Below, piece after piece: positions 421 to 56,270 of a DNA stretch of 56,610 nt; within the stretch, counting starts at the first letter, position 1; the number at the start of each line of letters is the position of its first letter. Source of the DNA: a bacterium (lineage in GTDB: Bacteria > Patescibacteriota > Minisyncoccia > UBA9983); NCBI GenBank assembly GCA_013152035.1, contig JAADHB010000026.1, forward strand, positions 1 through 56,610, written 5' to 3'. Below the pieces are notes generated by a model that searched no databases, was not told where the DNA came from, and worked only from the letters and a program-made list of their open reading frames with translations. A program made the position numbers and the translations under genes.

Positions 421-852
421 CTACTTCTTGTTCTTGTTTGTGGGAAAAACCTCCTTCCTTACTATTACGATCCTGTTGCCGAGGAGGACAAATCTAACCC
501 CCGGCATCCTTAACGCGCCAGGAACCCCCTTAAAAATCCTGGATCCATCTTTCGACAAAATCCAGAAGGTCCCTTTTTCCCCGGCGGAATTACCTACCTC
601 ATAGGTAATTCCGATCCTCTCTGCCAGCTGATTGAATGGCGCCGGCCGACCAATAACCGTAACCCCGACAACAATGCCGATTCCCCATATTATCAGACCG
701 GCGGCGACCCCAAAAATCGCCGACACTCCAGCTCTCTCCCAAGAGCTGGAGTGTTCAGCTCTTATTAATCCGTTTACCAAGTAAAGAATGTAGGCAGCCG
801 CAACCGCAGCCACAATAAGTAAAACTTGATTCCAGTTTGTAGGGTCTACCAT
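421..852 (-). CDS. Hypothetical membrane protein (2-3 TM helices plus a C-terminal soluble domain)
   Basis: 143-aa ORF with an AAGGAGG SD 6 nt upstream of the ATG at 852. Hydrophobic N-terminal half. No family recognised. Confidence 0.6.
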   Translation of the reverse strand: MVDPTNWNQVLLIVAAVAAAYILYLVNGLIRAEHSSSWERAGVSAIFGVAAGLIIWGIGIVVGVTVIGRPAPFNQLAERIGITYEVGNSAGEKGTFWILSKDGSRIFKGVPGALRMPGVRFVLLGNRIVIVRKEVFPTNKNKK

Positions 853-2951: not shown

Positions 2952-4637
2952 TTATTTTTGCAAACTGTCAAAATATTCCGGCGTGTTCGCGCTCATCCAT
3001 TTGAAAAGTTCCTTGGCGGCATAAAGAGCGCCGACATAGTTTCCAACCGGACCCTTTTCAAGAACTATACTAAAGGCGACCTTCGGATTTTCATACGGTA
3101 AAAAGCCGATAATCCACGAATTAACATGCGTTTTTGAAGATCCTATCTGAGCCGTTCCGCTTTTCGCCGCTATTTTAATATCCAAATTTCTCAGCCCCCT
3201 GGCAGTCCCCTCCGTGACAACCATCCTCATCCCCTCTTTTATTACTCGGAAATAACGCGCGGGGAGATTTGCCGAAGACTCCCAAGGTCTTACCTTGGTC
3301 CCCAAGGTAAGACCTTGGGAGTCCGGATTGAGAATATGCGGGCGGAGAATTTTGCCGTCGTTCGCGAAAGCGGCGGCGAAAACCGCCATCTGAATCGGAG
3401 TTACCTGGAAAAATCCCTGCCCGATACTGGCGTTGTAAGTGTCGCCGATTCTCCACACGGAGTCGTTTTTTCTTTTCATTTTCCACTCCGGACTCGGCAC
3501 CAGCCCCTTCGCCTCGCCCGCCAAATCAACGCCCGTTTTTGACCCCAACCCGAACTTCTCGGCATACTCCTTTATCTTTTTTATTCCCAGGCCCTTTATG
3601 TTTTCAAAGCCCCCGCCCACCTCGTAAAAATAAACATTTGAAGAATGGGCGAGCGCTTGGCGCATATCAACCCACCCCTGCTTTTTCCAATCGTAAAAAA
3701 CGCTTCTCTTGTCCGGGAAATACGGATTCGGAATGGAAATGCTTCCCGAGCTGAAAATTTTCTTTTCCGGGGTGATGTTGCCTTCGTTCAGCGCGCCGAT
3801 GGCGACAAGCGGTTTGACTATTGAGCCGGGCGTGTACACGCCGGAGACGGCCCTGTTCAAAAAAGGGTTGTCTTTGTCATTGATGAATTCATTGATTTTT
3901 TCTCTCGGCCCCCCGGCGGAAAGAACGCCCGAGTCATATTCGGGATAATTCGTGAGAGCCAATACGCCGCCGTTTTTTATGTCCAAAAGCACTCCGGCGC
4001 CGCCGTGAAAACCGCGATCCCGAATAATTTTTTCCATCGCCTTGTAAAACTCCGACTGAACTCTCGCGTCAATGGTCAGATGAATATCGTCCCCGTCCTC
4101 GGGCGCCTCCTGAACGCTTTCCGACACCGAATTGTTTTGCGAATCTGTTTCCAGTAGCTTCAGCCCCGGCTTGCCCGCCAAAACCGATTCGTATTCCCTC
4201 TCAACGCCCGCCTTCCCCACCGGCAAATCATGCAGAATTTTGCCGTCCCGCTCCCGCGGCAATCCGACATAACCCAAAATATGGCTCAAGCCGGGCAGGT
4301 CGGAATAGACCCTTGACTCCGGTCCGTTCCACGCCAGCTTCATTCCGTTTCTGTCGTATATCACCCCCCTGTTCGGGAGAATCGGCGCCGTTCTTAATCT
4401 GTTGTTTTCTCCTCTGGCGAAGAATACCGCCCCCTGCACCGCCTGCAAGTAGAAAATCTTGGCGAAAAAAAATACCATCACGGCGGCGAAAAAAATCGCC
4501 ACGCCGGTAAAAGTTTTCCTGCCGATCGGCTTCTCCACGCGCCCCTCAAAACGCCCCGTGTCAAAATCGGGGATGTTTTTGGAATCCATAAAAATTTCGT
4601 CGGGATAAATTTGAGATTCTCTTTTTTTTCTTCTCAT
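2952..4637 (-). CDS. mrdA: Penicillin-binding protein 2 (elongasome transpeptidase)
   Basis: 561 aa. N-terminal TM, SxxK (GSIVKP), SxN (SSNVYF), KxG (KSGTA). Located directly after mreBCD. Confidence 0.9.
   Translation of the reverse strand: MRRKKRESQIYPDEIFMDSKNIPDFDTGRFEGRVEKPIGRKTFTGVAIFFAAVMVFFFAKIFYLQAVQGAVFFARGENNRLRTAPILPNRGVIYDRNGMKLAWNGPESRVYSDLPGLSHILGYVGLPRERDGKILHDLPVGKAGVEREYESVLAGKPGLKLLETDSQNNSVSESVQEAPEDGDDIHLTIDARVQSEFYKAMEKIIRDRGFHGGAGVLLDIKNGGVLALTNYPEYDSGVLSAGGPREKINEFINDKDNPFLNRAVSGVYTPGSIVKPLVAIGALNEGNITPEKKIFSSGSISIPNPYFPDKRSVFYDWKKQGWVDMRQALAHSSNVYFYEVGGGFENIKGLGIKKIKEYAEKFGLGSKTGVDLAGEAKGLVPSPEWKMKRKNDSVWRIGDTYNASIGQGFFQVTPIQMAVFAAAFANDGKILRPHILNPDSQGLTLGTKVRPWESSANLPARYFRVIKEGMRMVVTEGTARGLRNLDIKIAAKSGTAQIGSSKTHVNSWIIGFLPYENPKVAFSIVLEKGPVGNYVGALYAAKELFKWMSANTPEYFDSLQK
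3277..3323. repeat. Nested palindromic element inserted in frame in mrdA
   Basis: gactcccaaggtcttaccttgg-tcc-ccaaggtaagaccttgggagtc: 22-bp perfect arms, each arm itself a CCAAGG..CCTTGG hairpin. It encodes DSQGLTLGTKVRPWES. The same core occurs at intergenic site 56226-56270. Confidence 0.85.
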
Positions 4638-4894
4638 TAAATTCGTATTTGCCTTTTAACTCTTTCAATGGCGAAAACCACTATCGCGGATATTGCCGTA
4701 AAAAGCCCGAAGCGGCCGTAAACGCCCGCGGTCTCTCCGCCGTACATCGCGTCCAGAAACAGTCCGGCGAGAACTGCCTCCCAAAATTTGGGAAACAAAA
4801 CGACGAACAAAAACGCCAACAACGCCGTGAAATACCACGGCGCGAAAAAGACACTCAAAAACAAAACAATATCGGCGATAATTCTCTTCATCAT
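4637..4894 (-). CDS. mreD: MreD-like small membrane protein (assigned by position)
   Basis: Probable start is the ATG at 4894 (MMKRIIADIV...). About 3 TM helices. Lies between mreC and mrdA, with a TAATG overlap onto the mrdA start. Shorter than a typical MreD. Confidence 0.45.
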   Translation of the reverse strand: MMKRIIADIVLFLSVFFAPWYFTALLAFLFVVLFPKFWEAVLAGLFLDAMYGGETAGVYGRFGLFTAISAIVVFAIERVKRQIRI

Positions 4895-4900
4895 TTCAGC

Positions 4901-4914
4901 ATTATACCACACTT
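4901..4914 (-). promoter_or_regulatory. Extended -10 promoter AAGTGTGGTATAAT, 6 nt upstream of the mreD ATG (leaderless-type)
   Basis: Minus strand reads aaagTGTGGTATAATgctgaaATGATG. Confidence 0.5.
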
Positions 4915-4945
4915 TCCCCGAAATCCGACTTCGGGGAAAGTGTGG
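4907..4945. repeat. Perfect hairpin with 16-bp arms overlapping the mreD -10 region
   Basis: ccacactttccccgaa-atccgac-ttcggggaaagtgtgg. Confidence 0.85.
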
Positions 4946-4964
4946 AGACTTAATCTCCAAGTGG

Positions 4965-4992
4965 TGGACAAATTAAACTGGCGTGGTATGGT
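4965..4992 (+). promoter_or_regulatory. Plus-strand promoter for the small ORF 5024..5197
   Basis: TGGACA (4965-4970), 16-nt spacer, TGG-TATGGT (4984-4992). Confidence 0.4.
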
Positions 4993-5203: not shown

Positions 5204-5245
5204 CCCCCACTTGGAGATTGAGTCTCCAAGTGGGGGTGTTTTTTA
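5204..5245 (+). terminator. Family-1 palindrome acting as an intrinsic terminator for the small plus-strand ORF
   Basis: cccccacttggaga-ttgag-tctccaagtggggg (14-bp arms) followed by tgttttttatt. Confidence 0.6.
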
Positions 5246-7081: not shown

Positions 7082-8338
7082 TTAGTAATTAGCAATTTCC
7101 TCAAGCAGTTCTTTTTTGTCCGCCATTTTGACTTCGCCGGTCTTTCTGTTTTTCAGCTCCAGTTTTCCCGCCGCCGCCGTTTTCGCGCTCGCGACCACCC
7201 GCCATGGGATGCCGATTAAGTCCGAATCGGCGAATTTTTCTCCGGCGGAGGCGCCCTCCCTGTCATCATACAATACCTCCATTCCGGCGTTTTGTAAATC
7301 GGCGTAAACGCCGTCCGCTTGGCTCATTACTTCCGAATCGCCGCCCAACCTGAGTAAATGAACCCCGAACGGAGCCACGCTCTCCGGCCAAACAATCCCT
7401 TTTTCATCCGAAAAAATCTCCACTATCGCGCCCATCAGCCGTCCCGGACCTATTCCGTAACTGCCCATAACGACGGGGTTTTTTTCGCCGTTTTCATCCG
7501 TGTAGTCAAGATTAAACGCTTCCGAAAACCTAGTCCCCAAACTGAAAATGTTCCCGACTTCAATCGCCTTCTCCTCTTTCAGCTCCTCTTTTTTCAAGCC
7601 GAGATCTTCAAGCGTCTTGTCGTCGTAAACCTCCTTGTTGACCGCGATTTTTTTCTCTTCGGAAACGAAAATAATATCCTCGCCCGCCTCGCATATCGTC
7701 TGAAATTCATGGGAATACTTGCTGAAACTCCCGCCCGAGGCGAAAGTAATGTAGGTCATATCCCCCAAACCGACGGAAGCGAAAATTTTTCCGTACGCCC
7801 CTTTCGCCTTTTCGTAAAAAGAATTATGCTCGTTTTCGTCCTTTGAAAACGAATACAAATCTTTCATCAAAAATTCGCGCCCGCGCATAATTCCGCTTTT
7901 CGCCCGAATTTCGTTCCTGAATTTCGTTTGGATTTGATAAGGATAAGCGGGTAGGTCGCGGAAAGAGCTGATGTGCTCTTTCATTAATTTCGTGAGCGGC
8001 TCCTCGTGGGTGAATCCCAAACCGAGTTCGGAGCCGTTTTTCAGTTTTGTTTTGAACCAGTTGTCCACCACCGAATCGTCCCACCTGTTCGTTTTTTCCC
8101 AAACGGACTTGTCCTGGAGCGCGGTTAAAAACAGCTCTTGCCCGCCGATGGCGTCCATTTCTCTCCTTATGATATTGTTTATTTTTTTCAGAACGCGGAG
8201 TCCGAGCGGAAGATATGAATAAACGCCCGCCATTTCCTTGTGGACAAAACCGGCGCGAATGAGCAGTTTCGCGTTTTTCGCCACCTCGTCCTTGGGCGCC
8301 TCTTTTCTCGTTTTCGTGAATAATTCGGACTGCCGCAT
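7082..8338 (-). CDS. proS: Prolyl-tRNA synthetase (short form without a full INS editing domain)
   Basis: Start moved to the ATG at 8338 (MRQSELFTKTRKEAPKDE...), which aligns with ProRS N-termini. Class II motifs present. About 418 aa. Confidence 0.9.
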   Translation of the reverse strand: MRQSELFTKTRKEAPKDEVAKNAKLLIRAGFVHKEMAGVYSYLPLGLRVLKKINNIIRREMDAIGGQELFLTALQDKSVWEKTNRWDDSVVDNWFKTKLKNGSELGLGFTHEEPLTKLMKEHISSFRDLPAYPYQIQTKFRNEIRAKSGIMRGREFLMKDLYSFSKDENEHNSFYEKAKGAYGKIFASVGLGDMTYITFASGGSFSKYSHEFQTICEAGEDIIFVSEEKKIAVNKEVYDDKTLEDLGLKKEELKEEKAIEVGNIFSLGTRFSEAFNLDYTDENGEKNPVVMGSYGIGPGRLMGAIVEIFSDEKGIVWPESVAPFGVHLLRLGGDSEVMSQADGVYADLQNAGMEVLYDDREGASAGEKFADSDLIGIPWRVVASAKTAAAGKLELKNRKTGEVKMADKKELLEEIANY

Positions 8339-8526: not shown

Positions 8527-9300
8527 TCAAACCTTCCTTGAAAGAATGTCTCCTAATTGCTTCACCAACTCGCGCTCCTTCTTGAGCGCGAGTTTGAGAT
8601 TGCGCCTCTCTCTTAACAACGACGCAATCTCTTCGTTTCTCTCTTTAATTTTTTCACTCTCCTTCTTTGTAAGCGCGAGTTTCAACTCGCGCTCGTCCGC
8701 GACGAGCTCTCCCACTTCCTTCCTGAGAAGAAAGGTGGAGAGCCCAAGGAGAATAATTATGAAGATCGCAATAATCGCCGCGATCGCCTCCTTTGCTCTT
8801 CTGTTATAGAGGGTGTCAATTGAGTCTATCCTCACCTTCGCCAGGATTGAATTAAGCCTGGCGTTCTCGGCGGAGAGGGCGCCTAGCCTTTTGTTTGCAT
8901 TCTCAACTTTCCGCAATGGATCACGGAAAGTTGGTCTCAATAATTCCGAGGGAATGAAAATCTCATCCCCGGGATATATCAAGTCCGCTTCCTCCACAGA
9001 AATCCTGTTTGCCTTTACTAGCGCAAACAGGGAACCGACTCCCTTTTTGCAGAATTTCTGGGCGATACCTGAGTAGGTGTCGCCCGGTAAAACGGTTACC
9101 GTTGTCCCGGGTGGGACGACCCCCAGCTCCGCCCTAATGTCGGCGACTGGGGTTCCAAGTTCCGCCTGGATGGCGGAGACTGGTGTCCCGGTGATCTCTG
9201 CCCTGGATGGGACCGCTAGGCAGAGGATAACAAAAGCCAAGATAAACAAAACTGCAAAAATAATCTTGATCATTTCAAAAACATCCCGTTTTTTCTCCAT
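8527..9300 (-). CDS. LysM-domain membrane protein with coiled coils
   Basis: 257 aa. AAGGAGG SD, N-terminal TM, LysM motif (VLPGDTYSGIAQKF...IYPGDEIFIP), a second TM and K/E-rich coiled coils. Confidence 0.75.
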   Translation of the reverse strand: MEKKRDVFEMIKIIFAVLFILAFVILCLAVPSRAEITGTPVSAIQAELGTPVADIRAELGVVPPGTTVTVLPGDTYSGIAQKFCKKGVGSLFALVKANRISVEEADLIYPGDEIFIPSELLRPTFRDPLRKVENANKRLGALSAENARLNSILAKVRIDSIDTLYNRRAKEAIAAIIAIFIIILLGLSTFLLRKEVGELVADERELKLALTKKESEKIKERNEEIASLLRERRNLKLALKKERELVKQLGDILSRKV

Positions 9301-9319: not shown

Positions 9320-10576
9320 TTACTTTTCTTTCCATTCTTTCACCAACGCCGAGGGCGTTGGTACAATCTCAATTCTCGCTTTTTTCGCGAGTTTTAGGGT
9401 TTTTTGCAAATACTGTTTCCTTTTGCCGGAAACTCTTTTGGATTTCTCCAAAGAGATCACGGCAAGTGCCTCATAAGCATCCCTCCTGAGTTTTTCCGGC
9501 GGTCCGTCTCGGAGCGCCTGAGAGAAATTCAAAAATGCCAAATCTAAAGCGATATTTTTCTCGCTCTCATTCTGACTAACCACAAACAGGGTTAAATAAT
9601 TCCTCCCCTGTTTGTTTCTTAATTCAGCGTTCGCTGGCGAGGCAAATGGACAGGCAAGCAACTTTTGATTTTGCTTGCCAATCTCCTCCCTTATTTTCTC
9701 CAATTCCGTTTTCTCCTTTTTTTCCGGAATTGGTTTAAGGTTGGGCTTTGCAATTTCCAGTTTGGAAACCTTTTGGGCTTTTTTCGGCGCGAACTGCTTA
9801 TTCGCCGCCGCCCAAAAATTATCCGGATCCAGGATTTTTACAAACGCCACCGTCATAGACGGCAGCGTCTGGATTTCGCCCGACCCGGACGAGAATCCGC
9901 CGCCCGGGGAGATATTAGCCCCCCACGGGGTTGAGGCAAAAATCTGGGCGAAGGCGCCAAACAAAGAAAAGGCGCCTGCCTTGTTTTTGAATACATAGTT
10001 GGAGCTTTCATTGATCGGGATGATCAAATCAGCTCCAATATCCATTCCCTTTTGCGAAAGCAGCATGGCAAAGTCCCACTTACTCGGGATTTTGTCCTGC
10101 GCTCCGAGTGACAACACCGCCACCCTGGCGTAATCCCTTCCCTCCGTTAATCCCGGAGGAATTCCAGGGAAAGGAGTGATTTCGGCAGTAGGCGGAAATC
10201 TCTGAAAGACAACCGGGGTGCTTTTTATAGCATCCCCCATTTCCTTCAGAAAGTCCTCGCCTTTCTCGGCAACAACTCCCCCTCGGTAATTCCTAATGAT
10301 CTCCCTCGTAATAACCGAGGGAAGATTGGAAAAAATTACAGAGTTGGGCGTTTCCTTCCGGTACTGCGCCGGCGGAAATTCCGGCGCATTCGGGAACTGT
10401 CCATATGGGAAATTCCCTATGGAACTGATGCTGATGTTATTTTTTTGATTATTGTTAAAAATAACACCCTGAGATAAATTCGTATTCGTTTCGCTGGTGA
10501 CGGTTGTGTCACCGGCGAGAACGAGTCCCGGCGCCAATAAAAGCGCTACTAAGACAAAAAACCAAAGAAATTTCAT
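9320..10576 (-). CDS. Secreted hypothetical protein
   Basis: 418 aa. GGAGGAGG SD. Signal peptide MKFLWFFVLVALLLAPGLVLA. No family recognised. Confidence 0.7.
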   Translation of the reverse strand: MKFLWFFVLVALLLAPGLVLAGDTTVTSETNTNLSQGVIFNNNQKNNISISSIGNFPYGQFPNAPEFPPAQYRKETPNSVIFSNLPSVITREIIRNYRGGVVAEKGEDFLKEMGDAIKSTPVVFQRFPPTAEITPFPGIPPGLTEGRDYARVAVLSLGAQDKIPSKWDFAMLLSQKGMDIGADLIIPINESSNYVFKNKAGAFSLFGAFAQIFASTPWGANISPGGGFSSGSGEIQTLPSMTVAFVKILDPDNFWAAANKQFAPKKAQKVSKLEIAKPNLKPIPEKKEKTELEKIREEIGKQNQKLLACPFASPANAELRNKQGRNYLTLFVVSQNESEKNIALDLAFLNFSQALRDGPPEKLRRDAYEALAVISLEKSKRVSGKRKQYLQKTLKLAKKARIEIVPTPSALVKEWKEK

Positions 10577-10577
10577 C

Positions 10578-10658
10578 CTAACCTCCTCCTTTTTTAAACC
10601 TCGCGAACAAGAAAACCGCGAGGAAAACTGTTAAGACTAAAAAACAGGAAAAACTCAT
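10578..10658 (-). CDS. Candidate 26-aa hydrophobic micropeptide
   Basis: AGAGGAG SD 5 nt upstream of the ATG at 10658. Sequence: MSFSCFLVLTVFLAVFLFARFKKGGG. Its stop codon abuts the SD of the next gene. Confidence 0.3.
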   Translation of the reverse strand: MSFSCFLVLTVFLAVFLFARFKKGGG

Positions 10659-10723
10659 CTGATCTCCTCTTTTGACTCTTTTTGTACCCCCGGAAGCGAG
10701 TAAGTCGCTTCCGGGGAGTTGGT

Positions 10724-11089
10724 TTAATTGTCGCCCGCGCCTCCAATTCCGGACTGCAAACTGTTCCTCAAAAAACTCCCTGAGGACTGATATGCGGTCC
10801 CTCCAGAAATTTCCCAGCTTTGGGACGAACCCTGCCCCAGGAAAGTTTCCCCGGAAAATTCTCCGGATCCGCTGGACCATAAGTGGTTCTCCTGTCCCCC
10901 ACCAGAAACGGAGAGGAACGAATTTCCATCAACAGCAAAACCTCCCAGTTGCCATTGGGAGTAGTCAGACCCCCCGTCGGCAAAGGTAAGACTGCAATTA
11001 GTGCAATCTGGGGACATGGCTTGCGCCGCCCCCATTGAGACAAAAAACATTGCAACTACAAAAAAAACTGCCAATGCAAAAAACTTCAT
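10724..11089 (-). CDS. Small secreted Gly/Ser/Gln-rich protein
   Basis: Start set at ATG 11089 (MKFFALAVFFVVAMFFVSMGAAQA), with a GGAGG SD upstream. The mature part is G/S/Q-rich. Confidence 0.6.
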   Translation of the reverse strand: MKFFALAVFFVVAMFFVSMGAAQAMSPDCTNCSLTFADGGSDYSQWQLGGFAVDGNSFLSVSGGGQENHLWSSGSGEFSGETFLGQGSSQSWEISGGTAYQSSGSFLRNSLQSGIGGAGDN

Positions 11090-11182
11090 CCTACACCTCC
11101 AAATAAAACAAGATAGATTATCAAAGAGCCAAGCTCCGCGTGTATTCATAGCACAAAAAGAGTAGTTGTGTCAATGGCAAAT

Positions 11183-12523
11183 TTATTTTCTTTTTTTGTC
11201 TTTAGTTGCCCGGCGAATTGCGATAATTATGATAACCAACAGGATCAAGAGCAGCCAATTGAAAGCTTTGCCCCATCCTCCGGAAAGTCCGAGGAATGCC
11301 GCCGCGGCGCCCAAAAGTCCGTCCGCTCCACCCGTCTTCGGCTCTCCACCCCCGCTTTCCACATCCTTATTATTATTTTCAGTATTTAAATTTTCCCCGC
11401 CGCCCCCGTTCGCCTCCCCACCCCCGAGAGTTTCTCCGCCCCCCTCGCTTTTTCCGAACGAGTTGTCCGAAGTTTTCGTTCCGTAAGCCAACGCTCCACC
11501 CCCGCTGTTTCCTCCATCCCCGTTCTCCGCTCCACCCTGTTCACCCGCTCCGCCGTTTCCGCCCGAAAACTCCTCCGCCGGCGGGGCGGTGTTTATTATA
11601 AAAGTTTTTTCGTAGCTTATCGTCGGGGGGCTCGCGCGCGAAATAACCCGATATTTGTAAAGCGTATCCGGCGCGAGTCCGGTGAGCGTAACCGAGTGCC
11701 GGGTCACTTTTATTCTGTCTTCGCTCGTTCCGTTCGGATACCCGAAATACGGCGATGTCGCCAGACTGAGCTGGTACGGCCCCTCCGAGGCGATTCCGTA
11801 AATCACTTGGCTTGTTGACAAAATGTTCGTGTCCCAAGTGATGACCGCCGTTCCGAGGGGAGTCGCCGGAGTCGCCGTTTCATTGGCGATTTTCAAATGC
11901 TCAAAAGGTTCAACGGGGCCGTTCGCTCCGCCTCCACCGCCTCCGCCCGTTCCGGGAACGGTTTCTCCCGTTCCGTCCGTTCCGCCGTTATCTCCGCCGC
12001 CCTCGCCTTCTCCGCCTATCTCCGTGTCTCCGCAGCTGGTGTTTCCTCCCTCAAATCCGACGCACAAATCAAAGCCGATCTCACCGTTTTGCGTGGAATC
12101 GTCCGCGTCGGCGCCAAAGGAAACAATAAACGAGTAAACCTCCGTGGCTCCCGCCGGCAACACGGAAAGTTTAACTTCTCCGGCGCGCAGAAAATCTCCG
12201 AGCGTTTTTCCGGAACCGTAAATCTCGCCCGAATCGCCGGAGATGACAAGCTTCAGCGCCTCGCCCAGCCCGCTATCGTCCGACGCGTTTATCGCCTCCG
12301 TGATGACCTGTTGGCTCTCTTCGGAATTGTTCGTAACGGTAACGGTTTTCGTTACTCCGTCTCCGGGAATAATATCCGCCTCGCTGAACAGCGGGTTTGT
12401 TTCAAAGACGACGGCAAGGGGCGGCGTCTCCGACACCGCCAGCGCGGAAGCGATCGGCGCGCCCCACAAAAGAACGGCAAGCAGTAAAATTGTTTTATTG
12501 ATTTTCATTTTCATTATTTTCAT
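11183..12523 (-). CDS. Surface protein: TasA/camelysin-like N-domain, Gly-rich linkers, Fn3-like domain, C-terminal sorting-signal-like anchor
   Basis: Signal peptide MKI(M)KMKINKTILLLAVLLWGAPIASALA. TasA-like motif LFSEADIIPGDGVTKTVTVTNNS. Fn3-like segment ending LYKYRVIS. C-terminus is EPKTGG, then a hydrophobic stretch, then RRATKDKKRK. The start could be 12508, 12514 or 12523. Confidence 0.7.
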   Translation of the reverse strand: MKIMKMKINKTILLLAVLLWGAPIASALAVSETPPLAVVFETNPLFSEADIIPGDGVTKTVTVTNNSEESQQVITEAINASDDSGLGEALKLVISGDSGEIYGSGKTLGDFLRAGEVKLSVLPAGATEVYSFIVSFGADADDSTQNGEIGFDLCVGFEGGNTSCGDTEIGGEGEGGGDNGGTDGTGETVPGTGGGGGGGANGPVEPFEHLKIANETATPATPLGTAVITWDTNILSTSQVIYGIASEGPYQLSLATSPYFGYPNGTSEDRIKVTRHSVTLTGLAPDTLYKYRVISRASPPTISYEKTFIINTAPPAEEFSGGNGGAGEQGGAENGDGGNSGGGALAYGTKTSDNSFGKSEGGGETLGGGEANGGGGENLNTENNNKDVESGGGEPKTGGADGLLGAAAAFLGLSGGWGKAFNWLLLILLVIIIIAIRRATKDKKRK

Positions 12524-23504: not shown

Positions 23505-23531
23505 CCACTTGGAGGCCGAGCCTCCAAGTGG
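23505..23531. repeat. Family-1 palindrome (variant loop), 13 nt downstream of a TGTGGATAA box
   Basis: ccacttggagg-ccgag-cctccaagtgg. TGTGGATAA lies at 23482-23490. Confidence 0.85.
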
Positions 23532-23582: not shown

Positions 23583-23792
23583 ATGAAGAAAGACATTCAT
23601 CCAAAATACTTCGCGGACGCGGTTATAAAATGCGCTTGCGGAAATGAAATAAAAGCGGGGTCCACCAGAGAAAAAACCGAGGTGGAGATTTGCGGCGCCT
23701 GCCACCCGTTTTTTACCGGCAAAAAGAAGGTCATTGACACCGCCGGAAGGGTTGAGAAATTCAAACAAAGGATGGCGAAAGCAAAAGCCTAA
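23583..23792 (+). CDS. rpmE: 50S ribosomal protein L31
   Basis: 69 aa. MKKDIHPKY..., with a C..C...C..CHPF zinc ribbon. Confidence 0.93.
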
Positions 23793-23859: not shown

Positions 23860-24591
23860 ATGGAACCTAAGACCATTATCATGGAAATACGCGCCGGGGC
23901 GGGAGGCCGGGAAGCCTCCCTTTTCGCCATGGACCTCTTTGAAATGTACACGAAATACGCCGCGAAACAGGGATGGAAAACCAGTCTCGTGGACGAATCA
24001 AAAAGCGAAGGGGGCGGATACAAGGAAGTTGTTTTTGAGATTTCAGGAGAGGGCGCTTACAAAAAACTCAAGAATGAAAGCGGGGTGCACAGGGTGCAGA
24101 GAATTCCGGTGACGGAAAAGTCCGGCAGGGTTCACACCTCAACCGCTTCCGTCGCCGTGCTCGCCGAAGAACCGGAGAGAAAAATAGAAATCAGGCCCGA
24201 CGATCTTGAAATAACCTTTTCACGCTCCGGCGGGGCGGGAGGGCAAAATGTCAATAAAGTTGAAACGGCGGTGCGAATATTGCACAAACCGACCGGAGTC
24301 GTGGTGCGATCGGAGCAGCAGCGATCCCAGCAGAAAAACCGCGAAAAAGCGATGGGTATTTTGAAGGCGAAAATAGGACAAATGGCGGCGGAGCAAAGAA
24401 GCGGCGCCGTGGCGCAGGAAAGAAGGGAGCAGATCGGAACCCAAGACAGGTCCGAGAAAATCAGAACTTACAACTTTCCGCAAAACAGAATCACCGACCA
24501 CAGAATCAAAAAATCTTGGCACAACATTGAAAAAATAATGGCGGGCGACTTGGAGCCGGTCATTAAGAAAGTTTCTCAAATTCAAAACTGA
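23860..24591 (+). CDS. prfA: Peptide chain release factor 1 lacking the N-terminal domain 1
   Basis: 243 aa. It starts at the position equivalent to about residue 106 of E. coli RF1 ([17 protein letters not shown]). PxT codon-recognition motif ([14 protein letters not shown]) and GGQ ([10 protein letters not shown]) are present. An in-frame TGA lies 5 codons upstream of the ATG. Confidence 0.85.
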
Positions 24592-24619
24592 TGTTTCGCG
24601 AAACATCAGTTTTGAATTT
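24578..24619. terminator. Perfect 42-bp palindrome (bidirectional terminator) containing the prfA stop codon
   Basis: aaattcaaaactgatgtttcg|cgaaacatcagttttgaattt, flanked by A/T runs, between convergent genes. Confidence 0.65.
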
Positions 24620-26816: not shown

Positions 26817-27257
26817 CTAATCATCAAGTTTAGCAATCCTTCTCTTGTGCCTTTCGTCTCCGCTGAACGGCGTTTCCAGCCAGAGTTTTATCGCCTTTTT
26901 CGCTTCTTCCTCGCCCAGAAAACGCGCGCCCAAAGAGAGGATATTGGCGTCGTTGTGCTCGCGCGCGAGTTTTACGATATCCTCGTCGTATTTATACAAA
27001 ACCGCCGCGCGGACGCCCTTGATCCTGTTCGCCGCCATCGCCTCCCCTTGTCCCGAGCCGCCCAAAACAATCGCGCGATTGTTTTCCGGATCGTCCGCCA
27101 CCGCGCGGGCGGCGGGCAAAATAAAGTCAGGGTAATCGTCTTTCTCGTCGTACGAAAAAGCGCCGAGGTCTTCCGCCTCGCAGCCCAACTCACTGAGAAA
27201 AACTTTTAATTTCTCTTTTAATTCAAAACCGGCATGATCGGAAGCTAGATATAGCAT
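26817..27257 (-). CDS. rpiB: Ribose-5-phosphate isomerase B
   Basis: Start preferred at ATG 27257 (MLYLASDHAGFELK). Also GSGQGEAMAANR. Confidence 0.88.
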   Translation of the reverse strand: MLYLASDHAGFELKEKLKVFLSELGCEAEDLGAFSYDEKDDYPDFILPAARAVADDPENNRAIVLGGSGQGEAMAANRIKGVRAAVLYKYDEDIVKLAREHNDANILSLGARFLGEEEAKKAIKLWLETPFSGDERHKRRIAKLDD

Positions 27258-27318
27258 AGATTTATTAATTTTCAATTTCTAATTTTAAATTTCTAAACAA
27301 TTTCTAATGTCTTAATTT
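27258..27318. repeat. AT-rich short-period repeat, left flank of the four-helix-bundle gene
   Basis: ...aattttcaatttctaattttaaatttctaaacaatttctaatg... It resembles the reverse complement of 27670-27718. Confidence 0.6.
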
Positions 27319-27669
27319 TCAATTGCCTTTTCTTAAGGTTGTTGAAATCTTGTTAAAAATAAGCGTCAATTCCTGCGCCTCTTTCCATAATTTCTTCAAA
27401 CTTTTGTTTTCTTCGGGATTAGATCTTGCTAATAATTCAATCCAGTATTTAGTTTCTTGTATTTCCTTTCTGCAAATAAATATTTTATTTCTGAAATCTT
27501 TCTTGGAGCTTGCGCCATTGGCTTCACAGTAATTCGCGCCAACGCTGGTGGAAGATCTCATCAATTGAAAAATTATGTTTTTATTTATTTCGTCTTTTTT
27601 AATCTCCTTTAATAAATCTATTATGTTTTTGCTGAAATTTTTAGTTCTTTCTTCGAGGTCGTAATTCAT
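27319..27669 (-). CDS. Four-helix-bundle protein (23S rRNA intervening-sequence protein family)
   Basis: 116 aa. Motif SVGANYCEANGASSKKDFRNKIFICRKEIQETKYW, typical of this family. Confidence 0.8.
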   Translation of the reverse strand: MNYDLEERTKNFSKNIIDLLKEIKKDEINKNIIFQLMRSSTSVGANYCEANGASSKKDFRNKIFICRKEIQETKYWIELLARSNPEENKSLKKLWKEAQELTLIFNKISTTLRKGN

Positions 27670-32465: not shown

Positions 32466-33941
32466 TTATTTTAATTTTTTTTCAAGCGTTTCTCCCAGAA
32501 TTTTCGGGTTCACGCTCCCTCTTGTCTCCTTCATTCCCTGCCCGACCAAAAACTGGAGGAGAGCTTCTTTGCCGCTTTTATACCCCTCCGCCTCCGTGGG
32601 GTTTTCCACGATTATTTTGTCAGCGAGTTTCTCTATCGCCGCCGCGTCGCTTGTCTGCTTCAACCCCATCTCGTCAACGATGGACGAAGGGTCGCCGCCC
32701 TTTTCAACCATTATTTTTAAAACATCCTTGCCGGCTCTGGATCCTATCTCCCCGGTTTTTATCATAGCGATAAGCTTCGCGAAATTTTTCGGAGAGGCGG
32801 GGAGATTTTCAAACGCCGGACCGCCACCGGCATCTTTCATTATGCTCTGCAAATCAGTGGTAAGATAATTCGCCGCCAAAGAAATCAATTCTCCACTTGG
32901 ACACTTAGTGTCCAAGTGGGGCAGTTCGGCGGCGACCTCCTCAAAATAGTCCGCGAATTTTTTGTCGCGAATAAAAACTTCCGTTTGTTCGCCATTGAGC
33001 CCGTATTCTTTTTTGAACCGTTCCCGTTTCTGCTGGGGAAGTTCCGGGGTGGGCATATCGCCCAAATCCAGATTGGTTAAATTCAACGCGGGCAGATCGG
33101 GTTCCGGGAAATACCGGTAGTCATGCGATTCTTCTTTTTCCCGCTGTGAAAATGTTTCTTGTTTATCCTCATTCCATCCGCGCGTTTCCTGGATGATTTT
33201 TTCTCCCACGTCCAACGCTCTCGCCTGCCTTTCAATTTCATAATTTATCGCCCGCTCCACGGCGCGAAAAGAATTAAGGTTTTTAACCTCAACCTTGGTG
33301 CCAAGTTGACCCAACTTGGAGATTGAGTCTCCAAGTGAACTTGGAGACTCAATCTCCAAGTTGGCGGGCTTAATTGAAATATTCGCCTCCACGCGCATCT
33401 GCCCCTTTTCCATATTCGCGTCCGATACCCCGAGGCAGAGAAAAATCAGCCGCAATTCTTCCGCGAATTTTCTCGCCTCCTCCCCGCTCTTTATGTCCGG
33501 TTCCGTCACAAGCTCCATTAAAGGAAGTCCGGCGCGATTAAAATCAACCAAACTGCCGTCCTTGCCGTGGACGAGCTTGCCCGTGTCTTCCTCAAGATGA
33601 ACACGGGTTATCTTGACTCCGTTCAACTCTCCCCCGCTCACGAGCGGATACTTGTACTGAGATATTTGGTAACCCTTCGGCAGGTCGGGATAAAAATAAT
33701 TTTTTCTGTCAAAGCGCGATCGCTCCGCCAGCCGTCCGCCCAACGCCTTGCCGACCATCAGCACTTTTTTCACCGCCTCTTTATTGATAACGGGCAGAGT
33801 CCCCGGATGACCCATGCAGACCGGGCACACGTTCACATTCGGGCGTTTTTCGTCCGGATTATTTGGAGAGCCGCAAAACATTTTGGTTCGCGTATTCAAC
33901 TCCGCGTGAATCTCCAAGCCGATTGTAGTTTCGTATTTCAT
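32466..33941 (-). CDS. gatB: Asp/Glu-tRNA(Asn/Gln) amidotransferase subunit B
   Basis: 491 aa. MKYETTIGLEIHAELNT..., the KNLNSF motif and a YqeY-like tail. It contains two palindrome-derived insertions. Confidence 0.93.
   Translation of the reverse strand: MKYETTIGLEIHAELNTRTKMFCGSPNNPDEKRPNVNVCPVCMGHPGTLPVINKEAVKKVLMVGKALGGRLAERSRFDRKNYFYPDLPKGYQISQYKYPLVSGGELNGVKITRVHLEEDTGKLVHGKDGSLVDFNRAGLPLMELVTEPDIKSGEEARKFAEELRLIFLCLGVSDANMEKGQMRVEANISIKPANLEIESPSSLGDSISKLGQLGTKVEVKNLNSFRAVERAINYEIERQARALDVGEKIIQETRGWNEDKQETFSQREKEESHDYRYFPEPDLPALNLTNLDLGDMPTPELPQQKRERFKKEYGLNGEQTEVFIRDKKFADYFEEVAAELPHLDTKCPSGELISLAANYLTTDLQSIMKDAGGGPAFENLPASPKNFAKLIAMIKTGEIGSRAGKDVLKIMVEKGGDPSSIVDEMGLKQTSDAAAIEKLADKIIVENPTEAEGYKSGKEALLQFLVGQGMKETRGSVNPKILGETLEKKLK
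32893..32919. repeat. Family-1-like palindrome in frame inside gatB (tail domain)
   Basis: ccacttggacac-tta-gtgtccaagtgg (12-bp arms). It encodes PHLDTKCPSG. Confidence 0.85.
33311..33364. repeat. Double family-1 palindrome in frame inside gatB (catalytic body)
   Basis: ccaacttggagattgagtctccaagt-ga-acttggagactcaatctccaagttgg: 26-bp perfect arms, each holding the cttggaga..tctccaag hairpin. It encodes NLEIESPSSLGDSISKLG. Confidence 0.9.
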
Positions 33942-37366: not shown

Positions 37367-37395
37367 CCCACTTGGAGTTTGAGTCTCCAAGTGGG
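37367..37395. repeat. Family-1 palindrome upstream of the scpA promoter, next to a TGTGGATAT box
   Basis: cccacttggag-tttgagt-ctccaagtggg. ATATCCACA lies at 37401-37409. The scpA -10 TGCTATAAT is at 37357..37349. Confidence 0.85.
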
Positions 37396-37459: not shown

Positions 37460-37512
37460 ATTATGGCTTCGGCCTCCGAGGACCCCGCGCTTGCGCGGGG
37501 TCCGATTTGTTT
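37460..37512 (+). ncRNA. Candidate ~50-nt sRNA convergent with the MazF-like gene
   Basis: TTGACT (37426-31), 16-nt spacer, TATACT (37448-53). A perfect hairpin ggaccccgcg-cttg-cgcggggtcc (37480-37503) is followed by GAUUUGUUU. No plus-strand gene is nearby. Confidence 0.3.
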
Positions 37513-37894
37513 ACAGCAACTGCAGCCACGCTTGCCTTAAAGAACTAAAAGATTTTTTGTTCAGCACATCAACTTTTCTCAGTAATCTTTTATTGCTTAC
37601 GAGTCTTACTTGTGTAAGCTTTGCCCAGATGGTTTTTTCTTCTGTTTGAATTTTATAATGAAATTTGTCATCTTTCTGCTTCGTGGTTAAAGGCAGAACA
37701 ACCATGGTTTCTTTATTGTAGACTTTCATAATTATTACGGGTCTTTCAAAATTTTCATTTTTCCCATCAATTTCAGCGCCGAGATTTAGACCAAGGGAAC
37801 ACCACCATATTTCTCTAGGGTGTATATATTTTTTTATATCAACTTCTTCAAGCTTCTTTTTTATTGAATTCCATTTGTCAAAATCTTTTTTCAT
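37511..37894 (-). CDS. PemK/MazF-family toxin-like protein (solo type with an N-terminal extension)
   Basis: 127 aa. REIWWCSLGLNLGAEIDGKNENFERPVIIM...VVLPLTT...AKLTQVRLVSNKRL matches the MazF/PemK fold pattern (compare E. coli MazF GDLIWVDFDP..G.EQAGHRPAVVLS). Confidence 0.65.
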   Translation of the reverse strand: MKKDFDKWNSIKKKLEEVDIKKYIHPREIWWCSLGLNLGAEIDGKNENFERPVIIMKVYNKETMVVLPLTTKQKDDKFHYKIQTEEKTIWAKLTQVRLVSNKRLLRKVDVLNKKSFSSLRQAWLQLL

Positions 37895-38229: not shown

Positions 38230-39066
38230 TTATTTCAATTTCTTCACTCTTTTCTTTTTTGGAAGATAATTCCTGCTTGTTGAAACTTTTTTGCCGGTTT
38301 TTCTTTCCAGATCTTTCCTCGCCTTGCCCGCTACGCTTCCGCCCTCTTTCGCGGCAATTTTATTCTTTTTCAGCCCTTGGGCGTTTTTATTTTTAGCGAT
38401 TTCCGTTGTTGAAGCCTCGCCCAACATCGTAAAGATTAGTTCCAAATCGTCCATATGGTCCCGCAAATTCTCCCTTTTCAATCCTTTCAGTTTTTGGTAT
38501 TCACTCGGCGTTATGCCAAAAGTCGCTTTTGATATTTCAGCCGTTAAAATCGCGTACTCCTGCCCCTCTTTCACCCCACGATTTTTCCATTCGTTTGTCA
38601 ATGTCGCGCGAACTTCAATGCCTCGCATTCTTTTTTCAATCCACGCGCCGGAATATCCCTTTGCCCTGTAAAGCGCCCTCGTTCTTTTTGTCGCCAGTTC
38701 CGGGTCCTCTATTTCTTTTACGCGCTCATAACCGACTTTTGCCAGCCAACGCTTGAAAGGTTCGGCTTTTGGCGAAGGGATTGATTGGATTATGCGAAAA
38801 ACACCTTCGGTGTTGGCGCAATCTGTCTCTCTCATTTTTCCATCAGGTGCCGGTAATTTCAACCCGTGACAAAATGTCACGACTTCACTTCCCTCATCCT
38901 TCAGTCTTTGTTTTAATTTTCTCCAATAAGCTCCTGCGTCAATACTGTCGGTTAAAGCGCCACAAACATCAATAACCGAAAACCACCATTCATTATTGTG
39001 AATAACTTTACGGACTTCTCTTTTTTGAAAAATCGCTATTTTTGTCGTTGTAATTTCTTTGTCCAT
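38230..39066 (-). CDS. Bro-N domain protein (DinD / phage antirepressor-like)
   Basis: 278 aa. N-terminal Bro-N motif (IHNNEWWFSVIDVCGAL...NTEGVFRIIQSI), a DinD-like middle region and a basic tail. Confidence 0.7.
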   Translation of the reverse strand: MDKEITTTKIAIFQKREVRKVIHNNEWWFSVIDVCGALTDSIDAGAYWRKLKQRLKDEGSEVVTFCHGLKLPAPDGKMRETDCANTEGVFRIIQSIPSPKAEPFKRWLAKVGYERVKEIEDPELATKRTRALYRAKGYSGAWIEKRMRGIEVRATLTNEWKNRGVKEGQEYAILTAEISKATFGITPSEYQKLKGLKRENLRDHMDDLELIFTMLGEASTTEIAKNKNAQGLKKNKIAAKEGGSVAGKARKDLERKTGKKVSTSRNYLPKKKRVKKLK

Positions 39067-45552: not shown

Positions 45553-46131
45553 CTATTTTAATATTTCTTTTGCATTTCCTTTATTTTCAACGGCTGAAAT
45601 CTCTTTTGAGATTTTCAACAAATCCTGCCTTTTTTCTCTATTCATGGAAAGCGCCCATCGCCACGCCTCTTTGTAGTCAAATATTCCGGTTCGCTTGCTT
45701 TCGACGATCACCTGATTTTCGGCAAATTTTTTGCCGAAAAGTTCTTCCCAAACATCAAATAAAATTAAAAACAAAGTTCTCTCCATCCCCACAAAAACCC
45801 CTTCGTGCCTGAATCCCTTTAAATTTAAGAGTAAGATGTGCCCAAGCTCATGAATAAGCGTGCCTGTTTTTATTTCTGCAGGATAACTCGCTCTCATTTT
45901 AATAAACTCCACTTCCTTTTTGTTGTTGTTCTCGCGCCACTTAACAAAACTGTATCCATTATAAACAACAACCTTAATGTTCTTGATATTACTATCAAAA
46001 GGCATTTCCGCCGCCCTTTCCAAGTTTTCAACAATCCTTTCTCCGTCTTTGTCCCAAATCTTTTTATATTCCTCGGTTGATTTGACAAACTCGGGGGTAT
46101 TTTGCTCAGGACTAAAAGTTAATTTCAACAT
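45553..46131 (-). CDS. Hypothetical protein with an HExxH motif (possible small metallopeptidase)
   Basis: 192 aa. TLIHELGHILL. No family recognised. Confidence 0.5.
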   Translation of the reverse strand: MLKLTFSPEQNTPEFVKSTEEYKKIWDKDGERIVENLERAAEMPFDSNIKNIKVVVYNGYSFVKWRENNNKKEVEFIKMRASYPAEIKTGTLIHELGHILLLNLKGFRHEGVFVGMERTLFLILFDVWEELFGKKFAENQVIVESKRTGIFDYKEAWRWALSMNREKRQDLLKISKEISAVENKGNAKEILK

Positions 46132-51256: not shown

Positions 51257-51922
51257 TCAAACCAGATTGAATATGTAGGCTGTCGCCTCTATGGCGAATA
51301 AAAAATAAAAAAGAATTGAGCTTATCCAATACATTTTTTGTTGTTCAATGACACCGGCAATAAAGACCCCCATGCTGGCGACAAGGGCACCGGTATAACC
51401 CAAAAGAAGACCGGCGCTAAAAAGGGGTGATGATGGAAAAGGGCTAGCGATAAACAGCCCTACGATGGCAAAGGAGATGGCCCCCGCCGCAAACCATCCC
51501 TTTCTTGTTACGTTGGCTGCCCCCATACAGAGGAGCCCACCGAGGATGACGGCGAAAAAGGGATTAAATTTTCTTTCCCGCTTCTCCTCCTTTTCCACAT
51601 TCTCTACGATAAAACTATTGCTAGCCTTGTCGTAAGAGATTGTCTTTTTGCACTCTGTGATTGTGGCATAGTGCCACAATCCATCCCGCTCCTTGCGGGA
51701 CTCGCAAATCGGGACTTTTGTTCCCGGGGTAAGTTTCGCGATTAGCGACCCCCTCTGGTTGCTGATGATCGTTTCTGTGTCGTTGGTTTTAATCAACGAC
51801 CCTTCGGTAACTAGGCGAAATCTGCCCCTTTCTATCTTTACCTCCCCTTCCGTGGCATACGCCACGGAAGCTAAAACCACCATAACGACCAAAATCGCAA
51901 TCGCAAAAAATATCTTTTTCAT
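51257..51922 (-). CDS. Hypothetical protein: signal peptide, small extracytoplasmic domain, about 4 C-terminal TM helices
   Basis: 221 aa. AAAGGAGGAG SD. Starts MKKIFFAIAILVVMVVLASVAYA. Confidence 0.65.
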   Translation of the reverse strand: MKKIFFAIAILVVMVVLASVAYATEGEVKIERGRFRLVTEGSLIKTNDTETIISNQRGSLIAKLTPGTKVPICESRKERDGLWHYATITECKKTISYDKASNSFIVENVEKEEKRERKFNPFFAVILGGLLCMGAANVTRKGWFAAGAISFAIVGLFIASPFPSSPLFSAGLLLGYTGALVASMGVFIAGVIEQQKMYWISSILFYFLFAIEATAYIFNLV

Positions 51923-56225: not shown

Positions 56226-56270
56226 TTTTTTACAATTTCCCAAGGTAAGACCTTGGGAAATTGTAAAAAA
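56226..56270. terminator. Family-2 palindrome (21-bp arms) acting as a bidirectional terminator-like hairpin
   Basis: ttttttacaatttcccaaggt-aag-accttgggaaattgtaaaaaa. The core cccaaggtaagaccttggg is identical to the right half of the mrdA insertion. Confidence 0.65.

Follow-up and report, generated by a model that had tools for sequence, protein, structure and literature searches.

The stretch analysed here, referred to as the window, is the whole 56,610-nt contig JAADHB010000026.1 of a patescibacterial genome assembly (GCA_013152035.1), and it carries a perfect nested palindrome at positions 3277-3323, in frame inside the gene of a PBP2/MrdA-type transpeptidase. Our results suggest, with a probability of about 60%, that this palindrome is a dispersed hairpin repeat, here an inverted doublet, which is tolerated in a disordered loop of the protein and kept symmetric by copying at the DNA level. 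Hairpins of the same repeat family lie at both genic and intergenic positions, the palindromes of relatives change on both arms together with strict Watson-Crick symmetry, and their history does not follow that of the genes that house them. The loop of the protein is a tolerant one. The copy at 3277-3323 may itself have been mobile, and its peptide is probably translated.

The palindrome in the PBP2 gene

The palindrome consists of two arms of 22 nt (3277-3298 and 3302-3323), 100% complementary and separated by 3 nt, with the sequence GACTCCCAAGGTCTTACCTTGG-TCC-CCAAGGTAAGACCTTGGGAGTC, and it ranks second by length among the inverted repeats of the window in an inverted-repeat search. Each arm is a hairpin in its own right, CCCAAGGT-ctt-ACCTTGGG (8/3) in one and CCAAGGT-aag-ACCTTGG (7/3) in the other, and the whole is one hairpin present twice, side by side, with its loop inverted. 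Read on the minus strand it gives ...NPDSQGLTLGTKVRPWESSAN... without a stop codon, within an open reading frame (ORF) of 561 codons. The inverted-repeat and ORF data agree with a preliminary description of this DNA, which had reported a 22+3+22 palindrome with hairpin arms, in frame in an mrdA-type gene. That description had also placed a second copy of the core in an intergenic hairpin at 56226-56270, and the exact 19-mer CCCAAGGTAAGACCTTGGG is indeed found again there. Chance is excluded, because only 0.01 matches to the 19-mer core at up to 3 mismatches are expected from shuffles, where the window holds five, and because simple arithmetic gives about 3e-8 perfect repeats with 22-nt arms and a spacer of 0-9 nt per 56.6 kb of random sequence. 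The palindrome is real and far beyond chance. As RNA it folds at -44.9 kcal/mol (z = -9.0).

The host ORF carries the PBP_dimer and Transpeptidase domains of Pfam, its best matches in the PDB are MrdA/PBP2 proteins, and mreB, mreC and a small ORF precede it. From its family the gene is presumed to be essential. All close homologues of the window proteins come from Patescibacteria/Parcubacteria. An AlphaFold2 model of the protein was built on an alignment of its homologues (A1) and reached a mean predicted local distance difference test score (pLDDT) of 75. Residues 436-452 are modelled as coil, between a short strand and the helix leading to the KSG motif, and pLDDT falls below 50 at residues 443-448. 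The palindrome-encoded block is the most length-variable part of the alignment, and mapping onto a PBP2 model, as had been proposed, put the encoded residues in this predicted coil.

The sole close orthologue of this PBP2 (protein P0002, 84% amino-acid identity) comes from locus L001 of an independent JGI assembly. Its loop, SQGGASGTKAPPWKYS, is of equal length, and the DNA behind it is a degraded palindrome with the same centre as that of the window, folding at -27 kcal/mol (z = -2.95). The inner 5-nt blocks differ on both arms, TCTTA/TAAGA in the window being replaced by CGGCG/CGCCG, and the resulting amino-acid changes are radical and affect both arms together (GAS to LTL, AP to VR), which argues that the peptide is a passenger. 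The inner block of the window palindrome is that of the intergenic copy of the same hairpin; the inner block of L001 is different. Where identity is 62% or less, PBP2 orthologues fall short by 3-10 residues, precisely in the block of the palindrome. The loop in L030 holds a perfect 18/1 palindrome, CCAAGGGGAGTCCTTGGA-t-TCCAAGGACTCCCCTTGG, in which the CCAAGG and GAGTC blocks are reordered, and that in L031 holds another perfect palindrome, CACCGACAAC-g-GTTGTCGGTG, whose 21-nt core is an intergenic hairpin of another genome (L023, 850-888). The PBP2 loop of L032 contains no palindrome. Orthologues encoding the same peptide in non-palindromic DNA, an observation that would speak for an ancestral protein sequence, were looked for and none was seen. 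The PBP2 site is thus a permissive loop of variable length that is filled with different palindromes in different lineages.

Hairpin families of the window

Two families of related hairpins were recognised in the window (Table 1), family A with CCAAGG/CCTTGG stems and family B with ACTTGG/CCAAGT stems, present at two and six loci, respectively. The pattern common to both is that of single hairpins in intergenic positions and an inverted doublet inside a gene. The intergenic A copy lies between a 105-aa ORF and infA-rpmJ-rpsM, about 50 nt upstream of infA and directly before a promoter-like TTGACT-17-TATACT site. In family B, the sub-hairpin of the gatB doublet, ACTTGGAGA-TTGAG-TCTCCAAGT, is represented by 23 identical nt in the hairpin behind mreC and by a near copy in the hairpin before scpA, while the hairpin next to rpmE and the single hairpin in gatB have the same outer stem as the doublet. 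The single hairpins were also considered as intrinsic terminators; canonical terminators were ruled out because no T-run follows them on the coding strand.

Table 1. Coordinates of the hairpin copies and of their host genes in the window
Feature	Position	Strand	Remarks
Host gene, PBP2/MrdA-type transpeptidase	2952..4637	-	561 aa
A-type inverted doublet	3277..3323		22-nt perfect arms, 3-nt spacer; D439-S454 of PBP2 encoded on the minus strand
Left sub-hairpin of the A doublet	3281..3299	-	ACCAAGGTAAGACCTTGGG on the minus strand; loop inverted relative to the right sub-hairpin
Right sub-hairpin of the A doublet	3301..3319	+	exact copy of the core CCCAAGGTAAGACCTTGGG
VRPWESSANLPAR			tryptic peptide predicted from the hairpin stretch, if translated
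Partial B copy, CCACCACTTGGAGATTAAGTCT	4946..4967	-	fused to an unrelated hairpin with a 16-bp stem at 4907-4945
B-type single hairpin	5204..5236		6 nt past the mreC stop; 23-nt core ACTTGGAGATTGAGTCTCCAAGT equals the gatB doublet arm
B-like hairpin, CCACTTGGAGGC-cga-GCCTCCAAGTGG	23505..23531		divergent region between a 467-aa ORF and rpmE
Host gene, gatB	32466..33941	-	491 aa
B-type single hairpin	32893..32919		13/1, in gatB; encodes (P)HLDTKCPS(G)
B-type inverted doublet	33311..33364		26-nt perfect arms, 2-nt spacer; in gatB
B-type single hairpin, one mismatch	37367..37395		between a mazF-like gene and scpA
A-type single hairpin	56226..56270		21-bp stem; identical 19-nt core at 56239-56257; intergenic

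Perfect palindromes in general are far in excess within the ORFs. Sixteen with arms of at least 10 nt were observed, against a mean of 0.8 and a maximum of 2 in synonymous-codon shuffles, which is an approximately 20-fold excess. The window has about 4 palindromic loci per 10 kb, and metagenome loci unrelated to it about 1, a comparison that is indicative only, because the controls were picked through a palindromic query and the relatives for their sites.

Searches with the cores were made in collections from which the host metagenome-assembled genome is absent. The exact 19-mer gave two unrelated matches among genome contigs (Oscillospiraceae and Shewanella), and an 18-mer search of metagenome contigs gave 18 loci with unrelated flanks and no doublet. 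The 18-mer CCAAGGTAAGACCTTGGG was found at a single locus that recurs, with the same flanks, in eight contigs of JGI metagenomes (L004, L005, L010, L012, L015, L016, L019 and L020; about 47% GC); these flanks are unrelated to the window. Viral contigs scanned with the B core and with the core of L022/L025 gave no match. A comparison of the element-encoded peptides with other protein families returned no candidates from a word index unsuited to so short a composite query, and a look-up of the window IF-1, aimed at the infA upstream regions of relatives, found nothing on record. The Rfam scan of the window assigned no family to the palindromes, its sole match being a tRNA-Thr.

Palindromes in gatB of the window and its relatives

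The longest inverted repeat of the window is the B doublet, which is likewise nested and in frame, and encodes (A)NLEIESPSSLGDSISKL(G) in GatB. The solved GatB proteins of Aquifex and Thermotoga have a gap of 13-15 residues exactly at this position, and the length gains of GatB at palindrome sites amount to 13-18 aa. The site was aligned across six independent assemblies (the window, L022, L023, L025, L026 and L027) originating from JGI, NCBI and ENA. It is perfectly palindromic in all six, with arms of 21-27 nt and spacers of 0-2 nt; all share the outer stem AACTTGG/CCAAGTT and differ in their inner blocks. Among the 26 stem pairs, 13 are invariant, 11 have changed on both sides (22 cells) and none has changed on one side only, and unpaired cells are confined to the two outermost pairs. 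All paired cells are Watson-Crick, no G-T (G-U) pair occurring among 146 cells, and the covariation score exceeds that of all shuffles and all slid controls. Pairs that change on both sides and never pass through G-T are expected from exact copying of one arm from the other at the DNA level, not from the usual selection on an RNA helix. The preliminary description had considered protein-level selection a very unlikely source of the PBP2 palindrome; that the sequence is set by symmetry of the DNA is borne out by the core shared with an intergenic hairpin and by the same phenomenon in gatB.

Comparison of the gatB genes indicates that the elements have a history of their own. The genes of L022 and L025 are 69% identical, yet they share an exact run of 50 nt that is precisely the palindrome, the next longest run being 20 nt, whereas the genes of the window and L022 are 85% identical and differ in the inner block. 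The 45-nt variant of GatB site 1 in L026 is also found in L029, slightly decayed (38 of 39 nt match) and at site 2, and a further CTTGG/CCAAG hairpin lies at a third site of L029. In other Patescibacteria gatB holds an unrelated, imperfect palindrome of about 66 nt, GGGGAGGATTTTGTTCCC...GGGAACCAAAATCCTCCCC, which encodes GDFVPLRTD..GN.TGTKI; it fills both variable sites in L028 (gatB at 10001-11554) and site 1 in L029 (gatB at 83-1582), and the peptide is also found in proteins P0127, P0133 and P0238. Many GatB orthologues have nothing at the palindrome sites. Judged from these alignments, the history of the elements does not follow that of the host genes, and the site comparisons taken together show that short palindromic units are replaced and move among a few tolerant loops.

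An RtcB RNA ligase gene lies immediately upstream of gatB in L026 (499-2429) and L027 (4577-5959), accompanied in L026 by Archease. The idea to which this gives rise, that the hairpins are excised from the RNA, is disfavoured; all copies are in frame and free of stop codons, so translation is the simpler reading.

Palindromes formed in place

The lineage also creates or perfects palindromes locally, as three sites show. At 200-244 there is a perfect palindrome with 21-bp arms; its left arm overlaps, by its first 12 nt, a block of about 100 nt with about 98% identity to L001, and its right arm is a reverse-complement copy that is absent from L001. In rpiB (26817..27275, minus strand) a perfect 22-nt palindrome with zero spacer, at 27064-27085, falls within the conserved motif ENNRAIVL without any indel. 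The rpiB of L025 reads EENRGIVL and its DNA is not palindromic; the E-to-N and G-to-A differences and one synonymous change are exactly those that complete the symmetry. At GatB site 2, changes in the flanks have extended the 13/1 hairpin of the window to 19/1 in L022. A local process that perfects palindromes is clearly at work alongside any mobility.

The block beside the first of these sites, at about 245-345, is far more similar to L001 than the genes are (82-85%). It contains several DnaA-box-like words, TTATCCACA, CTATCCACA and TTATCCACT, which make it a possible origin or conserved promoter region.

Comparison with known repeat systems

The preliminary description had likened the hairpin to the Rickettsia palindromic elements (RPEs). 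As described by Ogata et al. (2000, 2002) and summarised in PMC10969869, RPEs are palindromic repeats found between genes and also within the reading frames of many housekeeping genes, at sites that the protein structure tolerates, where they are read through as additional peptide; in that summary they are about 100-150 bp long, encode a conserved peptide, form about ten families and are restricted to Rickettsia. As far as this account goes, the window hairpins resemble them in being in frame in unrelated housekeeping genes (PBP2 and GatB) as well as intergenic, and in occupying a position that is probably compatible with the fold, here a predicted coil of low pLDDT in a length-variable block. 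They differ from the RPEs so described in size, with 47 bp (16 aa) in PBP2 and 27-54 bp in GatB, in a peptide that varies with the inner block, in the perfect symmetry of nested double hairpins, in the patescibacterial host and in that one loop holds different variants in different lineages. The likeness therefore stands for behaviour, that is, for a tolerant coil and a turnover in relatives that does not follow the host gene tree, and falls for membership (47 bp versus about 150 bp, and another phylum), the latter being judged on published descriptions of RPEs. RPEs are the closest match in behaviour, and size and host argue against placing the hairpins among them.

In architecture the closest match is the repetitive extragenic palindromic (REP) singlets and their doublets, the REPINs, which are mobilised by the REP-associated tyrosine transposases (RAYTs; PMC3116915, PMC3337134). 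REPINs are extragenic and RAYT-linked, usually measure about 70-100 bp or more with a real spacer, and mostly carry GTAG or CGTC end tags (PMC3733652). Like them, the window hairpins form inverted doublets that fold into one long hairpin, have singlets elsewhere and several copies in one genome, and show the both-sided changes that are common in REP hairpins. Unlike REPINs, both window doublets lie inside ORFs, the spacers are 0-3 nt, none of the A and B copies has the GTAG/CGTC tag at its ends or in its flanks, and a RAYT was not encountered in the 56.6 kb. Assignment to the REPINs fails on location and tag.

Other systems share single traits. Mitochondrial double-hairpin elements, the GC clusters of yeast and the repetitive hairpin-forming elements of sponges (PMC4478555, PMC2800124) are likewise very short repeats, folding into a hairpin or a double hairpin, that spread through compact genomes; unlike the window hairpins they belong to organelle genomes and have unrelated sequences. 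Such mitochondrial elements can sit in coding regions or in variable regions of rRNA. The PARCELs (palindromic amphipathic repeat coding elements) of Mollicutes (PMC2996958) are palindromic protein-coding DNA with a horizontal distribution, but their longer tandem units encode amphipathic modules of surface proteins, whereas the window has isolated hairpins in enzymes. As to miniature inverted-repeat transposable elements, inverted ends are trivial in any palindrome, no clear duplication flanks 3277-3323 and no insertion sequence was seen. Cis-regulatory RNA hairpins share the covariation but not the absence of wobble pairs, the shifting position, the lack of the element in many orthologues and the lack of an Rfam family. 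A full-text literature search for such elements in Patescibacteria or the candidate phyla radiation found none within the searchable texts.

Template switching at quasipalindromes, in turn, homogenises arms, inverts spacers and gives clustered multi-nucleotide changes, also in coding DNA (PMC7202029, PMC8604942). The exact Watson-Crick arms and the clustered changes on both arms, in GatB and between the PBP2 genes of the window and L001, are what it produces. An ancestral arm is seen at 200-244 and implied in rpiB; at 3277-3323 the window and L001 are both palindromic already. Unlike an element family, template switching is a mutational process, and alone it disperses no identical cores to unlinked loci or genomes.

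Origin of the PBP2 palindrome

We propose that the PBP2 palindrome is one doublet copy from a hairpin-repeat family whose members are very short and have CCAAG/CTTGG in their stems. This family would populate this patescibacterial genome and its relatives, as single hairpins between genes and as doublets and singles also in disordered surface loops of variable length in housekeeping proteins (PBP2 and GatB). Copies inside genes would be part of the transcript and, on the simplest view, also of the translation product, where they would account for about 9-18 arbitrary residues tolerated by the protein; whether they should be called selfish or neutral, they probably behave as passengers. Their arms would be held complementary by intrastrand templating (at the replication fork, through fold-back or a switch of template), by sequence replacement from further family members, including an occasional swap of the inner block, or by both. 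Inner blocks would then change on both arms together, and the protein loop would follow.

Several observations weigh against this proposal. The A core occurs at only two loci in the 56.6 kb, no transposase or RAYT was found by a Pfam scan of the approximately 60 window ORFs and no insertion sequence was seen, and the palindromes at 200-244 and in rpiB arose in place with no repeat family involved. Target-site duplications are not evident at the window copies and none is clear around 3277-3323, although in our own reading a TTGG repeat possibly flanks the GatB copies. In addition, the loop is as long in E. coli and other solved MrdA structures as in the window, with no net insertion, so an insertion is not demonstrable at the PBP2 site; the absence of about 15 residues from relatives, which had been anticipated, did not hold, since the 84% orthologue is of the same length, those at 62% or below lack only 3-10 residues and E. 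coli has equally many.

The main rival explanation is a purely local origin, in which quasipalindromic or template-switch mutagenesis made the palindrome in place, no mobile element took part, and the product survives only in a loop that tolerates any sequence. The shared 19-mer would then reflect short-tract conversion or convergence on CCAAGG/CCTTGG seeds. Such a process preserves length and so keeps the reading frame, its mechanism is documented (PMC7202029, PMC8604942), the loop shows no net change in length against E. coli PBP2, many long perfect palindromes of the window are unique in sequence, and the three sites described above show it in action: a new right arm copied from a left one whose first 12 nt are ancestral at 200-244, substitutions without an indel in rpiB, and flank changes at GatB site 2. 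What a local origin leaves unexplained are exact cores of 19-23 nt, loop bases included, at unlinked loci, a 50-nt identical element in gatB genes of 69% identity, one variant at two different GatB sites in L026 and L029, and the length gains of 13-18 aa in GatB. We therefore consider it unlikely as the whole explanation. Still less probable is a structure under selection, acting either in the mRNA as a translation pause, as a site for RNase III or protein binding or as a stability element, or in the DNA as a protein-binding cruciform. Pairing is conserved in the six GatB orthologues, with 11 double-sided changes and covariation above all controls, the folding energies are very strong, and the same loop is occupied by a hairpin in several lineages. 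However, no one-sided, G-U type cell occurs among the 146, and pairing that is Watson-Crick throughout indicates symmetry of the DNA; the element is missing from many orthologues, shifts its position within GatB and is replaced by unrelated palindromes, the L001 copy is decaying, and Rfam has no match.

Two further explanations retain hardly any probability. One is an artefact of assembly or amplification, in which a chimeric fold-back read would have entered the contig; in its favour, records of the exact PBP2 protein come from a single contig. This explanation is rejected because independent assemblies show the same phenomenon: L001 has a variant of the same length at the same site, and six assemblies have perfect palindromes at the same GatB site; the reading frame is also intact. 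The other, just as remote, is a motif like a DNA uptake signal, whereby CCAAG/ACTTGG words would accumulate through biased uptake in the manner of the paired uptake sequences (USS/DUS) of Haemophilus and Neisseria. Patescibacteria are thought to scavenge DNA, and uptake sequences are known as inverted pairs, both behind genes and within coding segments that tolerate them. Yet the hexamers are not enriched outside the hairpins, with 13 CCAAGG, 18 CCTTGG, 12 ACTTGG and 22 CCAAGT in the 56.6 kb against about 14 expected for each. The dispersed hairpin repeat, with local perfecting of its arms, accordingly remains our preferred reading.

A bolder possibility, which we put forward tentatively and consider doubtful, is that Patescibacteria have a lineage-wide process or a hairpin-specific enzyme that writes, spreads and keeps perfect palindromes, even in essential genes. 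If this is true, the same protein loops would be overwritten repeatedly, and 50-nt elements identical between hosts with 69%-identical genes would mean that the smallest protein-invading elements known spread horizontally or in a targeted way; a possible cause would be, for example, the loss of exonucleases that normally suppress fold-back copying.

In-frame protein-coding palindromes have so far been known mainly from Rickettsia and treated as its peculiarity. The same behaviour is met here in an unrelated, very large and poorly understood radiation of tiny genomes, with elements that are three times smaller and perfectly symmetric, hosted by a cell-wall transpeptidase and a tRNA amidotransferase. 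It explains in concrete terms some of the unusual insertions and differences in length among proteins of Patescibacteria, and it is a warning that such loops may be driven by DNA rather than adaptive. The signature of changes on both arms without wobble pairs is a clean natural example of hairpin-templated evolution in coding DNA, and it raises the question of which enzyme or missing repair function makes these genomes rich in palindromes.

Other features of the window and its relatives

About 55 of the 60 convincing genes of the window are on the minus strand, and the coding density is about 93%. On the plus strand, rpmE (23583-23792) is followed by the gene of a 243-aa release-factor-like protein (23860-24591), which covers only positions 99-194 of the 194 of the PCRF profile together with the RF-1 domain, its N-terminal domain being missing; none of the upstream frames supplies this part. 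The same 243-aa gene stands beside rpmE in L031. Over the last 14 nt of the window gene, at a convergent junction, extends a 42-bp perfect palindrome without spacer (24578-24619). Among the housekeeping genes there are also a free-standing gene for a protein of the 23S rRNA intervening-sequence family (27319-27669), a MazF/PemK-like toxin (37511-37894) and a Bro-N domain protein (38230-39066).

Further palindromes were noted in coding DNA. The LysM-domain gene at 8527..9300 (minus strand) has two perfect ones, 8567-8594 and 8672-8693, built from the 10-mer AACTCGCGCT in opposite arrangement and encoding KLALKKEREL and ERELKLAL. Perfect palindromes with arms of 10-13 nt also occur in three ORFs without Pfam domains: 421..852 (585-613 and 723-754), 45553..46131 (45716-45740) and 51257..51922 (51659-51681 and 51847-51870). 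Relatives have hairpins of their own. L023 has an intergenic family, CCACCGAAACC-n-GGTTTCGGTGG, with three copies in 21 kb, and a second one, CCACCGACAAC-g-GTTGTCGGTGG, whose core is the palindrome in the PBP2 loop of L031 (11340-11360 there); the L023 intergenic hairpins lie at 850-888, 4710-4754 and 11464-11533. In L028, rbfA and infB are separated by about 0.9 kb of non-coding DNA, which holds three perfect hairpins (7498-8144) with the loop CTGC, two of them with the stem GCAAGCCAA.

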